DNA of 41,009 nt from Candidatus Moraniibacteriota bacterium (GTDB lineage Bacteria > Patescibacteriota > Minisyncoccia > Moranbacterales > UBA2206). The position numbers were made by a program, and so were the translations under genes. Numbering within the stretch: the first letter of the stretch is position 1; each line of letters opens with the position of its first letter. Below the pieces are notes generated by a model. It was not told the DNA's origin. It ran no database searches and was given only the letters and a program-made list of their open reading frames with translations. Shown piece by piece: positions 25,479 through 30,479 of the stretch. The stretch spans positions 1-41,009 of the forward strand of contig JAPLXF010000066.1 in the NCBI GenBank assembly GCA_026396205.1. The letters run 5' to 3'.

Positions 25479-25553
25479 ATCCTAATTTTTATCCTAATTA
25501 TATCCGAATTAGATTCGAATTTAATTCGGATGTAATTCGTGTCTTAATTCGCA
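25479..25553 (-). repeat. Type-B stop-to-start spacer, copy 2 (rplR-rpsE)
   Basis: ATCCTAATTTTTATCCTAATTATATCCGAATT next to the rpsE CAT; contains perfect 10-bp hairpin ATCCGAATTA/TAATTCGGAT. Confidence 0.8.
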
Positions 25554-25898
25554 TCAGAATTTAAGTCCGCCTTCACGCGCTCCTTCGGCTAGCGCTTTTA
25601 TTTTGCCATGATATTTATATCCCGATCGGTCAAAAACAACCGCGCTGATTTTCTTATCCATGCATTTTTTAGCTATCGTTTTCCCCAACCCATTGGCTCC
25701 GGCAATATTATTTTTAGCTTTTATATCTTTAAGTCTGGCCGACACAATGGTTGTTTTTTTATTATCATCAATTACTTGGACATAAATTCCCTTGAGACTT
25801 CGAAATACTGAAAGCCGGGGAAGTTTTCCGGTTCCGGAAATTTTCGCCCGAATCCGGAGTTTGCGATGCATTCTTAATTTATTGCGACTTAATTTCAT
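25554..25898 (-). CDS. rplR: 50S ribosomal protein L18 (uL18)
   Basis: 114-aa ORF, RLSVFRSLKGIYVQVIDD, C-terminal AEGAREGGLKF. Confidence 0.93.
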   Translation of the reverse strand: MKLSRNKLRMHRKLRIRAKISGTGKLPRLSVFRSLKGIYVQVIDDNKKTTIVSARLKDIKAKNNIAGANGLGKTIAKKCMDKKISAVVFDRSGYKYHGKIKALAEGAREGGLKF

Positions 25899-25912
25899 AT
25901 AATTGCAGATTT

Positions 25913-26464
25913 TTACTTAGTAGTTGTAGCCGCCGCTTTCTTTCCGGCTTTGCGGCGCACATATTCTCCGACATAGCGGAAGCCTTTGCCCTTGTACGGT
26001 TCAGCTTGTTTAAAATCCCGGATATCTGCCGTAAACTGGCCAACTTGCTGTTTATCAATTCCGGAAATGACCAAAAATCCTTCCGCATCAATTTTGGCTT
26101 CGATGCCTTCCGGAATGTCTATTACTACCGGATGGGAAAAGCCCAGTGCCATATTTATTTTTTTGCCCTGAACGGCCATGCGGAAACCAACGCCCTGAAG
26201 TTCCAGTTTCTTGGCATAGCCTTCCGTAACTCCGGTTACCATATTTTGAACCAGCGAGCGGGTAAGCCCCCAAAGCGCCGAAGCTTCTTGGGAATTTCCC
26301 ACTGATTTTACCGAAACTTCCTGGCCGTTAATTTCAACTTTGGCTTCCGGATGAACGGAAAGATTCAAGGTTCCCTTGGGACCTTTGACTGAAATTTCCT
26401 GGCCTTGGATTTTTACTTCCACTCCGGCCGGAATTATTATTATTTTTTTACCAATCCTTGACAT
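25913..26464 (-). CDS. rplF: 50S ribosomal protein L6 (uL6)
   Basis: 183-aa ORF, MSRIGKKIIIIP...PYKGKGFRY. Confidence 0.95.
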   Translation of the reverse strand: MSRIGKKIIIIPAGVEVKIQGQEISVKGPKGTLNLSVHPEAKVEINGQEVSVKSVGNSQEASALWGLTRSLVQNMVTGVTEGYAKKLELQGVGFRMAVQGKKINMALGFSHPVVIDIPEGIEAKIDAEGFLVISGIDKQQVGQFTADIRDFKQAEPYKGKGFRYVGEYVRRKAGKKAAATTTK

Positions 26465-26541
26465 ATCCTAATTTTTATCCTAATTATATCCGAATTAGAT
26501 TCGACTTTAATTTGTATGTAATTCGCATCTTAATTCGCATG
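26465..26541 (-). repeat. Type-B stop-to-start spacer, copy 3 (rpsH-rplF)
   Basis: Same start-proximal 32-mer as copies 2, 4 and 6 (copy 1 differs by one base); fills the whole spacer. Confidence 0.8.
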
Positions 26542-26946
26542 CTACCAGACTTCGCAAATTATTTCTCCGCCCAATCCTGCTTTTCTGGCTTCGGCTCCGG
26601 TCATTACTCCTTTGGAAGTGGAAATAATGGAAATACCGTATTTATTTTTAACATTTTTTATTTTATCGTGCTGAACATAAATTCTTTGTCCCTCATGGCT
26701 TATTCTTTTAATGTCGGTAATAACCGGATTTTTTTCTGTCCGGGAAATTTGATAGTAGCGCAGGACTATGTGAATCTGTTCGCGATTTTCCACCCTTTCT
26801 TTTTCCACCGATTCGATAAATTTTTCCTGTTCCAAAATTTTAGCCACCGCCAGTTTGAGTTTGGAAGCGGGAAAAACCAGCTCGGGTTTGCCGGCGCGTT
26901 GGGCGTTTTTTGTTCTTGTAATCATGTCGGAGATTGGATCAATCAT
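26542..26946 (-). CDS. rpsH: 30S ribosomal protein S8 (uS8)
   Basis: 134-aa ORF, MIDPISDMITRTKNA...GGEIICEVW. Confidence 0.95.
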   Translation of the reverse strand: MIDPISDMITRTKNAQRAGKPELVFPASKLKLAVAKILEQEKFIESVEKERVENREQIHIVLRYYQISRTEKNPVITDIKRISHEGQRIYVQHDKIKNVKNKYGISIISTSKGVMTGAEARKAGLGGEIICEVW

Positions 26947-27030
26947 ATCCTAATTTTTATCCTAATTATATCCGAATATTATCCGAATATTCGCGTTTAA
27001 TTCGGATGTAATTCGTATCTTAATTCGTAT
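26947..27030 (-). repeat. Type-B stop-to-start spacer, copy 4 (rpsN-rpsH)
   Basis: Same start-proximal 32-mer; CGAATTA words at 11-12 nt spacing. Confidence 0.8.
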
Positions 27031-27216
27031 CTACCAGCTAGCCTTCCTTATTCCCGGCAATTGGCCGGTAATCGCCAATTCCCGAAAACAAATCCGGCAA
27101 ATGTCGAACTGGCGCATATAGCCATGCTTGCGGCCGCAACGCCAACAACGGCGCACTATCCGCGTGGAAAATTTCGGTTTTTTTCTAGCTCTAGCTTCTA
27201 CAGATTTCTTTGCCAT
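27031..27216 (-). CDS. rpsN: 30S ribosomal protein S14, zinc-binding type Z (uS14)
   Basis: 61-aa ORF with CWRCGRK...CRIC motif and C-terminal W. Confidence 0.93.
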
Positions 27217-27375
27217 TTTTGTCTACGAGCGGAGCGAGTAGCTACAAAAATGAGCATCCCGCACCAACTTATTGTTTAATCTTTAAATTTTTTATTACCT
27301 TAAGCCGCAGGCGAATCCGCGGGGATAATTTTCCATTTTTGAAAAACTATCCTCGAAGTTTGGTGCGGGAGGCCA
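27217..27375 (-). repeat. Type-A structured leader element, copy 5 (fills rplE-rpsN spacer)
   Basis: Closing stem CCCGCACCAAACUU / AAGUUGGUGCGGG, box GCCGCAGGCG, terminal hairpin CAUUUUUGU/ACAAAAAUG containing the rpsN AUG. Confidence 0.8.
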
Positions 27376-28773: not shown

Positions 28774-28804
28774 ATCCTAATTTTTATCCGAATTATATCC
28801 GAAT
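28774..28804 (-). repeat. Type-B spacer, copy 5 (start-proximal half only, rpsQ-rplN)
   Basis: ATCCTAATTTTTATCCGAATTATATCCGAAT next to the rplN CAT. Confidence 0.7.
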
Positions 28805-29056
28805 TTAATTCGAATAAACAACTTTATATCTCTTATCCTTGCTTATCGGACGGCAGGGAACTATGGTTACCACATCTCCAACCTTGAATCGATTTTCCGG
28901 ATCGTGGGCCTTATAATGTTTGTTCGATTTAAACTTCTTGTGGTATTTCGGATGAGTTTTAAAACTCATCACGGAAACCACTACCGTTTTATCCATTTTA
29001 TCACTGACGACTGTTCCCTTTTTCAGAATAGTTATTTTTTTCTTTTTTTCTGACAT
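28805..29056 (-). CDS. rpsQ: 30S ribosomal protein S17 (uS17)
   Basis: 83-aa ORF, GTVVSDKMDKTVVV...HPKYHK...YKAHD. Confidence 0.93.
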   Translation of the reverse strand: MSEKKKKITILKKGTVVSDKMDKTVVVSVMSFKTHPKYHKKFKSNKHYKAHDPENRFKVGDVVTIVPCRPISKDKRYKVVYSN

Positions 29057-29060
29057 AAAT

Positions 29061-29249
29061 TTAATTTTTGCCTTCTTTAATTAAGGTGATAATGCGGGCA
29101 ATATCCCTTTTGGAATTGCGAATTTCGCGGTGATTTTTTACTTGCTTGCCTGCCACTTCAAAACGCAGTTTGCGAACCGCCTCCTGCTTTTCTGCCAGTA
29201 GTTTCTTTAATTCTTCAATATTTTTTTCCCGGATTTCCTTGATGCGCAT
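29061..29249 (-). CDS. rpmC: 50S ribosomal protein L29 (uL29)
   Basis: 62-aa helical [17 protein letters not shown]...LRFE; position between rplP and rpsQ. Confidence 0.9.
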
Positions 29250-29267
29250 ATTAAAATTCTATCAATG

Positions 29268-29675
29268 TTATTTAATAATAAATTTGGTTTTCACATTCAA
29301 TTTATGGGAGGCTAGTTTCATCGCTTCTTTGGCGGCCGATTCTTTCACGCCGTCCATTTCAAAAAGAACTCTTCCTGGCCTTACTACCGCTACAAAATGG
29401 TCCACTGAACCCTTGCCCTTGCCCATTGGAGTTTCATCGCCTTTTTTGGTCATCGGCTTGTCGGGAAAAATGCGAATCCAGATTTTGCCTCCGCGCTGGA
29501 TATAGCGAGTCATGGCGCGCCGCGCCGCTTCAATTTGCCGGGCAGAAACCAAATTGCTTTCCACCGCTTTAAGCCCAAAACTGCCGAAACTAAGTTCGCT
29601 TCCGCGCGAAGCCAAGCCGCGGATTTTTCCTCCGCGATGATGTTTTCGATGTTTAACTTTCTTGGGCATTAACAT
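29268..29675 (-). CDS. rplP: 50S ribosomal protein L16 (uL16)
   Basis: 135-aa [18 protein letters not shown]...[12 protein letters not shown]. Confidence 0.95.
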
Positions 29676-29740
29676 ATCCTAATTTTTATCCTAATTATAT
29701 CCGAATTAAATTCGAATCCAATTTGGATATAATTCGTATC
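29676..29740 (-). repeat. Type-B stop-to-start spacer, copy 6 (rpsC-rplP)
   Basis: Same start-proximal 32-mer; fills the whole spacer. Confidence 0.8.
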
Positions 29741-30394
29741 TTAATTCGTATCTTTTTTAAATACTTCCCCTTTATACAGCCAGACTTTTACGCCGATTGT
29801 CCCGTAGGTAGTGAAGGCGGTGGCTCTGGCAAAATCGATATTGGCTCGGAGAGTGTGCAACGGGAGCGTGCCCTTGGCCGTCCATTCGGTTCGCGACATT
29901 TCCGCTCCGTTCAATCGGCCGGAAACCATAATTTTCACGCCCTTGACGATATTATTTTTGGAAACCTGGTCAATCATCGATTTAAGCGCCCGGCGAAAGG
30001 GAATTCTTTTTTCCAGCTGTTCGGCAATATTCTGCGCCACCAGAAAGGCATTTTCTTCAAAATTTTTAACTTCCTGAACTTCCACCTTCAGACTGGTTTT
30101 TTTATTTTTAAAATAATTACTTTTAATAAAATGCTGGAGTTCTTCGATGCCGCTGCCGCCGCGCCCGATTAAAACTCCGGGACGGGCCGTGCGGACAATA
30201 ATCTTGATCATAGCGGCTGAACGCTCAATCTCCACATCGGCGATGGCTGCGTTTTTCCATTTCTGTATTATTTTTGTCCGAATCAAAACATCCTTCCGGA
30301 GATTTTCCCGATAGTCTTTCTTGCCCAACCACTTGGACCGCCAAGTGTTGGTAATTCCGATTCTGAGTCCGACTGGATTTATTTTATGTCCCAT
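29741..30394 (-). CDS. rpsC: 30S ribosomal protein S3 (uS3)
   Basis: 217-aa ORF, MGHKINPVGLRIGI...KH and C-terminal domains. Confidence 0.95.
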   Translation of the reverse strand: MGHKINPVGLRIGITNTWRSKWLGKKDYRENLRKDVLIRTKIIQKWKNAAIADVEIERSAAMIKIIVRTARPGVLIGRGGSGIEELQHFIKSNYFKNKKTSLKVEVQEVKNFEENAFLVAQNIAEQLEKRIPFRRALKSMIDQVSKNNIVKGVKIMVSGRLNGAEMSRTEWTAKGTLPLHTLRANIDFARATAFTTYGTIGVKVWLYKGEVFKKDTN

Positions 30395-30479
30395 ATATCC
30401 TAATTATTATCCGAATTACATTCGAATTATATTCTAATTCGAGTTTAATTCGGATTTAATTCGTATCCTAATTCGTATC
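30395..30479 (-). repeat. Type-B stop-to-start spacer, copy 7 (rplV-rpsC, more divergent)
   Basis: ATCCTAATTATTATCCGAATTACATTCGAATT... word series from the rpsC CAT to the rplV stop. Confidence 0.7.

Follow-up and report, generated by a model that had tools for sequence, protein, structure and literature searches.

Word-built palindromic repeats between ribosomal-protein genes of a Candidatus Moraniibacteriota bacterium suggest a so far undescribed kind of selfish cassette linked to GxxExxY genes

In a 41,009-nucleotide (nt) stretch of DNA from a Candidatus Moraniibacteriota bacterium (assembly GCA_026396205.1, contig JAPLXF010000066.1, positions 1 to 41,009; the whole stretch is called the window here), several gaps between the stop codon of one gene and the start codon of the next are filled by copies of a short repeat, type B, in which CGAATTA words are followed by their inverse, TAATTCG. 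Our analysis suggests that type B belongs to a kind of selfish DNA cassette for which we know of no earlier description, and that it was not built for the purpose of regulation. More precisely, we consider the chances to be about even that it is the gene-less form of a selfish palindromic cassette which, in its complete form, would carry at its centre a gene of the GxxExxY family, coding for a protein with a predicted nuclease fold.

The genes of the window that are relevant here all lie on the minus strand and comprise the str/S10/spc ribosomal-protein cluster (EF-G, EF-Tu, S10, L3 ... L15, SecY, Adk, Map), secE-nusG-L11-L1 and a group-3 hydrogenase operon. Judging from the L6 protein, the organism belongs to Candidatus Moranbacteria (Parcubacteria, part of the CPR, or Candidate Phyla Radiation), and the nearest species representatives share at most 67% identity. 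An initial annotation of this DNA had recorded seven copies of type B, and all of them were found again on the minus (sense) strand and could be aligned, with two corrections: the S3/L16 copy, given as 29676-29740, is a full 77-nt element that ends at 29752, and the half copy, given as 28774-28804, reaches into the S17 gene. The seven copies within these 41 kb, all of them in intergenic DNA as minus-strand stop-to-start gaps, include six full ones of 75-85 nt and a truncated one:

2257-2339, minus strand: type B, long subtype of 83 nt, between secE and nusG (from the alignment; fold of -19.2 kcal/mol, z -3.9)
25479-25553, minus strand: type B, short subtype of 75 nt, located between L18 and S5 and beginning immediately behind the canonical C-terminus of L18 (...GLKF-stop)
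26465-26541, minus strand: type B, 77 nt, between S8 and L6 (89% identical to the L18/S5 copy; fold z -1.1)
26947-27030, minus strand: type B, long subtype of 84 nt, between S14 and S8 (S14 retains its canonical end, KASW-stop)
28774-28816, minus strand: truncated type B (centre and right arm) in the S17/L14 gap; the additional residues YSN and the stop of S17 are read from its first 12 nt
29676-29752, minus strand: type B, 77 nt, between S3 and L16; the S3 reading frame extends over its first word, GATACGAATTAA, and takes its stop from there
30395-30479, minus strand: type B, 85 nt, between L22 and S3, with seven AATT cores 11-12 nt apart (-21.2 kcal/mol, z -3.7)

A full copy is built from about three direct words of 11-12 nt with a CGAATT core, a centre and about three inverse words, and its ends are GATACGAATTA and TAATTAGGAT. 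On both strands of the window TAATTCG occurs 35 times, against 12.5 +/- 3.3 in shuffled sequences (0 of 100 shuffles reach 35), and 18 of its 22 plus-strand matches are intergenic. The autocorrelation of the words over the six full copies, which had been proposed as a check, peaks at lag 11 (z=13.1) and lag 12 (z=9.0), with harmonics at lags 22-23 (z ~7). The description of type B as a standardised stop-to-start repeat of phased words with some hairpin potential is borne out. The last ~30 nt before the ATG (GGATATAATTAGGATAAAAATTAGGATATG) are nearly invariant in the window copies, while the 5′ half is variable.

Some host reading frames run into the element. S17 ends in ...YKVV-stop in relatives, whereas in the window it is extended by YSN, read from element words; likewise, S3 ends in ...DTN-stop, with its last codons and its stop taken from the word GATACGAATTAA. 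S14, S8 and L18 keep their canonical C-terminal ends. Host frames that enter the element and end at its TAA are easier to reconcile with inserted DNA than with a leader that has evolved.

The strongest indication of what type B may be comes from the hydrogenase operon. The spacers at 12109-12135 and 12514-12567 had been listed as related word spacers; the words are indeed present in them, but the two are not independent of each other and form the right and left arms of a single element that is split by a gene, a link to a nuclease gene that was absent from the initial annotation:

12514-12605, minus strand: left arm of the cassette, with eight ATCCGAATTA-type words, the first of which encode the C-terminal tail and the stop of the hydrogenase small subunit
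12136-12513, minus strand: GxxExxY/PDDEXK_3 gene of 125 amino acids at the centre of the palindrome (PF13366, E 1.5e-25; TIGR04256, E 3e-24)
12109-12135, minus strand: right arm of the cassette (AATTCGTGAATAATTCGGATTTAATTTGT), which ends at the ATG of the hydrogenase large subunit

Left-arm words begin within the small subunit's C-terminal codons and continue as far as the GxxExxY start codon (ATG), and right-arm words (TAATTCGGAT type) occupy the stretch between the stop of that gene and the ATG of the large subunit. When the gene is removed in silico and the arms are joined, the product is colinear with solo type B (71-77% identity), and the gene sits at the type-B centre. The same arrangement is conserved in other Moranbacteria (L086-L094 and L096; such labels designate sequences of relatives or of carriers of GxxExxY homologues), and in L086, L089, L092 and L096 the tail of the small subunit is also written in words. 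The longest open reading frame of the large subunit (10849-12132) starts at a GTG inside the element words. As the conserved N-terminus (MNIRINHIAKMEGH) demonstrates, the true start is the ATG at 12108, which means that word arrays can mislead the calling of start codons.

We are confident, on the basis of structural modelling, that the GxxExxY protein would adopt a PD-(D/E)XK nuclease fold. Its AlphaFold model has a pLDDT (predicted local distance difference test score) of 91.8, the best Foldseek matches are the cores of Cas4 SSO0001 and lambda exonuclease (E 1.6e-4, template-modelling score 0.61 on the query), and proteins of the family conserve acidic and lysine residues of the catalytic type, D69 and K81 being examples. 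A sequence search of the PDB with GxxExxY returned no homologue. The only classification found in the searched literature places the family under 'Unknown' (PMC3424549).

The nesting of GxxExxY genes in word-array palindromes is not confined to this operon, as it was observed in about nine independent contexts across four phyla. Six of them are in CPR bacteria (hydrogenase small/large subunit, HU/ABC transporter, RNase III/S16, DUF8128/TraG-like, upstream of gatB, and L108), and the others are in Treponema, Bacteroides and Bernardetia. Among distant CPR homologues, direct words of the CGAAT type (or GCGGAT) lie upstream of the gene and inverse words downstream, and when the gene is deleted in silico the flanks form one long hairpin of -25 to -42 kcal/mol. 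A perfect 11-bp inverted repeat, ACACGGATTCG/CGAATCCGTGT, surrounds the gene of Treponema saccharophilum, and the genes of Bacteroides finegoldii (radA/FAD protein) and Bernardetia (ade/manC) have CACAGAG(G)A words and their inverse in the flanks. The ends of the L102 element are a perfect inverted repeat, TGATGCGAAT...ATTCGCATCA, and the cassette of L095 is inverted relative to the same neighbours in L099 and L104. When the gene was deleted in silico at 17 GxxExxY loci, not all of them independent, a fraction of 0.69 of the pairs joined one flank to the other, compared with 0.30 for 62 control genes (Mann-Whitney p = 8.6e-5).

In addition, the type of word tracks the clade of the protein: CGAAT words go with the CPR clade, C[AG]CAGAG words with Bacteroides, Bernardetia and copy 2 of Gemmatirosa, and GCGGAT words with L108 and copy 1 of Gemmatirosa. 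L095, L096, L099 and L100 have solo CGAAT hairpins no more than a few kb away from their cassettes, and no solo CACAGAG hairpins were found in the 25 kb and 49 kb around the Bacteroides and Bernardetia cassettes. In two contexts the gene is wedged between partners that are adjacent in most bacteria, namely fabD and fabG on a plasmid of Sphingomonas parapaucimobilis (L116) and the beta and epsilon subunits of ATP synthase on a CPR contig (L097). A profile search of viral contigs for GxxExxY found nothing, and the matches of such contigs to a type-B 18-mer were dismissed as coincidental coding matches. A generic screen by duplex energies for other genes nested in inverted flanks was swamped by GC-rich loci.

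Several points weigh against a selfish origin of type B around this gene. The nested pattern is absent from 6 of the ~15 GxxExxY contexts looked up, which are few and in several cases orthologous to each other. In the ATP-synthase context and in Sphingomonas (fabD/fabG) there is only a left arm, the Fusobacteria context has direct repeats, and in those of Prevotella and Persicobacter no obvious word pattern was seen. A Gemmatirosa copy lies between two near-perfect 3+3-word hairpins of CGCAGAGGA words, and thus has full hairpins at its flanks. The association might also mean no more than that the gene lands in hairpins that were already there. No partner gene was identified for the many other word families of these genomes, nor is any activity of GxxExxY known in the literature searched. 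Among near-identical contigs there was no insertion or empty-site polymorphism at high identity, the only indels being runs of N, and no consistent target-site duplication was found; the flanks are the stop (TAA, TAG or TGA) on one side and the ATG on the other, and no duplicated motif common to them was visible. The copy counts refer to the 41-kb window. Finally, a positive function at the RNA level could equally account for copies that share one orientation and an invariant 3′ end and whose hairpin lies close to the stop.

The occupancy of the junctions changes between relatives, which speaks for the selfish cassette. No species representative carries type B at the orthologous junctions. The spacers found there are plain and 1-45 nt long in L001, L006, L011, L013, L016 and L017, while in L002, L003, L004, L012, L014, L015 and a Doudnabacteria contig (L019) there are stop-to-start spacers of 75-150 nt that have the same architecture, with direct words in the 5′ arm and their inverse in the 3′ arm, but use other words (for instance, TTACGAAT/ATTCGTAA, AGTTGGT/AACTAAG, AAAGTAAAAAG/CTTTTAC or CAACTGA/TGAGTTG). 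Several such word families can coexist in one operon (L002). A metagenome scan with the conserved 3′ half showed that closer relatives hold true type-B copies, at S8/L6 in L081 and at nusG/L11 and upstream of secE in L082; the identity of their proteins to those of the window is ~80-84% for nusG and L11 and ~63-87% for the spc cluster. At secE/nusG and nusG/L11, however, type B and a second spacer type, type A (see below), are swapped between L082 and the window, the secE/nusG spacer of L082 being type A, and in L081 type-B junctions of the window are taken up by plain spacers or by another word family (the S14/S8 spacer is plain and 42 nt long). The comparison with orthologous spacers, named in the initial annotation as a possible refutation, goes largely against a conserved regulatory cassette: at those junctions, relatives are without the element or hold another one.

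Among themselves, the window copies share 73-89% identity, against only 68-76% with the S8/L6 copy of L081, and the window copy at that very junction is only 70% identical to it. Together with the junction swaps, this similarity within the genome indicates that the family changes its places from junction to junction and that, inside one genome, it spreads or is homogenised. Copies that resemble each other more than the L081 copy, and that show no covariation, would also be expected from neutral AT-rich filler that is homogenised by gene conversion and has neither mobility of its own nor a function. We consider this quite improbable, as the junctions share no flanking homology that conversion could rely on, the architecture returns, built from other words, in numerous genomes and phyla and also around one specific gene family, and the 3′ end is invariant and the orientation constant.

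Close and distant relatives express the same essential genes with plain spacers of 1-40 nt, so that the cassette is dispensable; this counts against the main rival explanation, to which we assign a real but distinctly smaller probability than to a selfish cassette. In this rival, type B would be a punctuation of the operon at the RNA level: the ribosome would melt the hairpin that abuts the stop codon and free an A/U-rich start, allowing coupling or re-initiation across 77 nt without a Shine-Dalgarno (SD) sequence, or the hairpin would serve in the protection or processing of the mRNA (e.g., by RNase III), and the elements would be kept for this job whatever their origin. An RNA-level role may, in fact, coexist with a selfish origin.

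On the whole, the folding of the copies counts against this explanation, although the unpaired stretch before the AUG is in its favour. The minimum-free-energy folds (-10 to -21 kcal/mol) have modest z-scores of -1.1 to -3.9, and pairing in them is confined to one or two inner words of each arm; as a rule, the outermost ~17-20 nt on the 5′ side and the ~17-25 nt that precede the AUG stay unpaired. These outer words are single-stranded because those on the right (TAATTAGGAT) are not complementary to those on the left (ATACGAATTA). The one long imperfect hairpin that had been proposed is therefore real for the inner words and overstated for the outer ones. Copies with mutated words lose pairing, as in the S8/L6 copy, where the left inner word is mutated (ATACAAATTA) without a compensating change, and the S17/L14 copy has no left arm at all. 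For nine type-B copies (six from the window, S8/L6 of L081, and nusG/L11 and upstream of secE of L082), RNAalifold found 0 compensatory pairs and a consensus fold of -4 kcal/mol. Among single mismatches inside Watson-Crick-only folds of 121 spacers of the window and relatives, no excess of G.U on the sense strand was found (29 G.U-type and 29 A.C-type), and the antisense strand of type-B copies folds equally well or better than the sense strand. Thus, nothing indicates selection on pairing in the sense transcript. Rfam 15 at gathering score gave two tRNAs in the window and nothing else, and at E<=1 both strands of 25400-30550 gave one chance, sub-threshold match to a miRNA hairpin. A consensus scan found no terminator-like site in any type-B copy; the stems are A/T-rich and followed by an A-rich tail, unlike the G+C-rich stem and U run of intrinsic terminators.

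By contrast, the position of the hairpin is what an RNA-level role would lead one to expect. In 47 single-hairpin spacers of the window and relatives, the median distance is 2 nt from the stop to the beginning of the helix and 8 nt from the end of the helix to the ATG; 35 spacers have a tail longer than the head and 10 the reverse (Wilcoxon p=0.0012), and the tails are 82% A+T. This layout is what selection would leave where translation starts on unstructured A/U-rich leaders, and just such a geometry would also be required if a terminating ribosome melted the stem to achieve coupling. The initial suggestion of translational coupling is thus suited by the geometry and left without covariation or G.U excess to back it. 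Furthermore, all nine copies place unpaired AGGAT-type words next to the AUG in constant orientation, and the near-invariance of the 3′ 30 nt extends to the L081 copy and to nusG/L11 of L082 (not to the copy upstream of secE), although the flanking proteins are only ~63-84% identical. AGGA, GGAG or GAGG motifs at normal spacing are essentially absent from 290 genes of ribosomal-protein clusters of relatives, whose leaders are A/U-rich, so an unstructured start should matter in this lineage. For the same reason, the AGGA motifs of type B, correctly described as lying outside SD spacing, should not be read as SD sites, and we rejected them as such. Some word families also persist near the same genes: a word hairpin of the TTTTCAAT/ATTGAAAA family with a 7-nt period lies at 17027-17140 of the window, and the TTTTCAAT family recurs at L15/SecY or SecY/Adk in L002, L003, L005 and L007.

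The phasing of the words could, alternatively, reflect binding to DNA. Its AATT cores, up to seven of them in one copy, follow each other at 11-12 bp and would share a face of the helix; type B might be an array for the cooperative binding of a nucleoid, regulatory or nuclease protein, or bent DNA, and the strong periodicity described above, the maintenance of the outer words as words even though they are unpaired, and the match between word type and GxxExxY clade across phyla (expected if the protein reads the words) are all in keeping with this. Nevertheless, we regard it as unlikely. Of 14 other word hairpins of the window and relatives with a clear period, 9 have one of 7 nt and the rest of 10, 14 or 16 nt, none of which is a DNA helical repeat, so helical phasing is no general feature and the one-helical-turn spacing noted at first is peculiar to type B. 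The several word families per operon (L002) would need many proteins in a genome that is expected to be small, and the window offers no candidate for a regulator with a link to type B.

Even less probable, in our estimation, are internal promoters, a very unlikely explanation in which a TATAAT 20 nt upstream of the ATG would provide each downstream gene with a short-leader transcript. It is true that, as annotated, all full copies have a perfect TATAAT, and its distance from the ATG does not vary. Yet a sigma-70 consensus scan found no sense-strand -35/-10 pair in any copy, the motif arises automatically at the junction of two words (GGATA|TAATT), and relatives lack it at the same junctions, as do the other word families. 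DNA-binding arrays, internal promoters and neutral filler are all less likely than the selfish cassette and the punctuation at the RNA level.

Returning to the selfish cassette, the analysis shows the repeats as a family with their architecture, how patchily they are distributed in relatives, the nested gene and its association with palindromes across phyla; the nuclease activity, the mode of spread and any effect on RNA are inferred, as is every mechanistic step beyond the sequence architecture. As DNA, miniature palindromic repeats would have spread into the very short gaps that separate stop and start codons in tightly packed operons. The nuclease would recognise the words, or the extruded hairpin, and make a break, the repair of which by copying another element would lead to homing or to a gene-conversion-like spread; in that case, a solo copy would represent either an empty target site or a derivative left by deletion. 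Homing into empty palindromes, break-induced copying and transposition of gene-less copies might each account for the spread. In essential operons, only those insertions would survive that keep a stop (the words themselves carry TAA), an ATG and an unpaired A/U-rich leader, and such a filter would explain the stop-to-ATG extent, the constant orientation and the invariance of the last ~30 nt compared with the decayed rest.

A broader version can be offered tentatively, as one that we find possible but would not favour. GxxExxY (PDDEXK_3) proteins would be the nucleases of an unrecognised class of palindromic word-array cassettes in CPR bacteria, Spirochaetota, Bacteroidota and Gemmatimonadota, each reading clade-specific words; the cassettes would home or transpose into intergenic junctions, and gene-less derivatives would have multiplied and colonised even the ribosomal-protein operons of ultra-small CPR bacteria, where their 3′ ends became the leaders of essential genes.

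Type B is not the only word family of the window. The initial annotation had proposed two standardised cassette types, A and B; type B is standardised indeed, but it is one of several such families in the genome. Three further spacers resemble it to different degrees:

34043-34140, minus strand: long type-B-like hairpin directly 3′ of the S10 stop (fold of -32.2 kcal/mol, z -5.5; word composition)
33858-33940, minus strand: hairpin of TACGAAT words upstream of L3, a sister family that is also present in L002 and L003
31394-31491, minus strand: degenerate CGAAT-word spacer between L2 and S19, with a weak fold (sense -14.2, antisense -17.8 kcal/mol)

Additionally, two hairpins of TTAACGAG words, 94% identical to each other, are located at 16185-16261 and 18365-18443 (-27.6 kcal/mol, z -8.2), and the latter adjoins an IS1595-family transposase gene (17669-18346, plus strand), which lies on the opposite strand and is bounded by GGCTCTAGACC inverted repeats. 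Type A, of ~160 nt, occupies 96-260, 1543-1710, 8098-8260, 15151-15310, 27217-27375 and 28229-28407. It contains a long-range inverted repeat, CCCGCACCAA...TTGGTGCGGGATGCTCA, its 3′ end (GACAAAAATGGC) provides the ATG of the downstream gene (S14, nusG), and its sequence is conserved in other Moranbacteria (L003, L012 with four copies, and L082), without a match in Rfam.

Some other features of the window were noted as well. Between S10 and L3 (~33960-34035) there is a conserved motif, CTAGTTAAAGTCC-hairpin-GGATACTCAACTAGCCAG, common to L001, L004 and L006 and diverged in L015, regardless of the flanking word hairpins; it looks like an unannotated ribosomal-protein leader and is absent from Rfam. 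A MarR/ArsR-type winged-helix gene (38887-39195) lies between near-identical palindromes of 34 nt (38813-38846 and 39245-39278; ACACTATTCTGGTATTCTTGAGAATACCAGAATA), which look like operator sites. A 126-nt direct repeat (9576-9701 and 10002-10127, 91% identity) is found in a region without convincing genes. The genes for a Y1 (IS200/RAYT-like) protein (7207-7848), a reverse transcriptase (8288-9193) and a small GIY-YIG protein (19484-19741) are not flanked by CGAAT words, and a type-A element follows the reverse-transcriptase gene.

CPR (Patescibacteria) genomes are thought to be streamlined. It is in spite of this that essential operons are studded here with repeats that supply stop codons, C-terminal residues and 5′ leaders, a natural experiment on how non-SD translation tolerates or exploits structured inserts. 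The link with GxxExxY gives a testable function to a widespread family of unknown function. Such repeats can also break metagenome assemblies and mislead gene callers, through a GTG start in the words or frames that run into the elements. In a literature search that covered CPR intergenic hairpins or miniature inverted-repeat transposable elements (MITEs), the function of GxxExxY and its link with palindromes, no description of CPR intergenic word hairpins or MITEs and none of the association between GxxExxY and palindromes was found, although such an absence is no proof of novelty.

Type B shares features with several known systems. MITEs and the Correia/NEMIS elements of Neisseria can donate promoter or processing signals and join host transcripts. 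Like them, type B is shorter than 200 bp, non-coding and multi-copy, with inverted ends and co-transcribed hairpin RNAs, but it has no consistent target-site duplication, no DDE transposase shares its ends, those ends are word arrays, and its boundaries are stop and start codons. MITEs have an autonomous partner that shares their ends and encodes a transposase; for type B there is a gene-carrying element with the same arms, whose product is an uncharacterised PD-(D/E)XK protein and no known transposase. The attC sites of integrons are recombined as folded single strands, have R″-L″/L′-R′ core sites (RYYYAAC/GTTRRRY) and accompany a nearby intI. They are similarly imperfect palindromes of 60-140 nt that lie between co-oriented frames from stop to start, but type B lacks the R/L core sites (GTTRRRY) and flanks core ribosomal genes instead of cassettes. 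No integrase-like gene was noticed among the translated reading frames of the window, of which only eight were scanned against Pfam.

PD-(D/E)XK proteins include a homing endonuclease, I-Ssp6803I. As in free-standing homing endonuclease genes, the GxxExxY gene is small, promoterless and nuclease-fold-encoding, it is inserted co-directionally between housekeeping genes (fabD/fabG, atpD/atpC, radA, hydrogenase subunits), its distribution is sporadic, and the sequence at the insertion point is symmetric. By contrast, GxxExxY has no known cleavage activity, its 'target' is itself a dispersed repeat, and no intron or intein is involved. In TIGR-Tas systems, a Tas (Nop-domain) gene lies beside arrays with box C/D-like motifs and dual spacers (PMC12045711). 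Since the window has neither a Tas gene nor such motifs, this candidate was rejected.

The closest analogue, by comparison of architectures, is the arrangement of repetitive extragenic palindromes (REP) and their REPIN doublets with a RAYT gene, even though the defining points that were tested fail. Reportedly, this is how REP/BIME and REPIN-RAYT systems are organised: in Enterobacteria and Pseudomonas, a Y1 transposase gene is flanked by inverted repeats, and gene-less copies are found elsewhere. Here, however, the gene in the palindrome codes for a 125-amino-acid protein of the PD-(D/E)XK fold and for no HUH/Y1 transposase, the GTAG/CTAC that REP palindromes have at their foot is missing from every type-B copy, each arm is a row of tandem words instead of one palindrome, and the elements lie in essential ribosomal-protein operons, abutting stop and start codons. 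A direct link through the Y1 gene of the window (Pfam Y1_Tnp, 5.8e-7; NCBIfam REP_Tyr_transpos, 28 bits with a cutoff of 80) was discarded, as its flanks contain no CGAAT words and it is GxxExxY that the words flank. What the two have in common is a multitude of short imperfect palindromes in intergenic DNA, often inside operons, that form doublets with hairpins of ~100 nt and are co-transcribed with host genes, and a single gene bracketed by inverted copies of a repeat that has many gene-less copies. Type B and its GxxExxY cassette may define a type of mobile element of their own, which would consist of a minimal PD-(D/E)XK nuclease and structure-forming word arrays.

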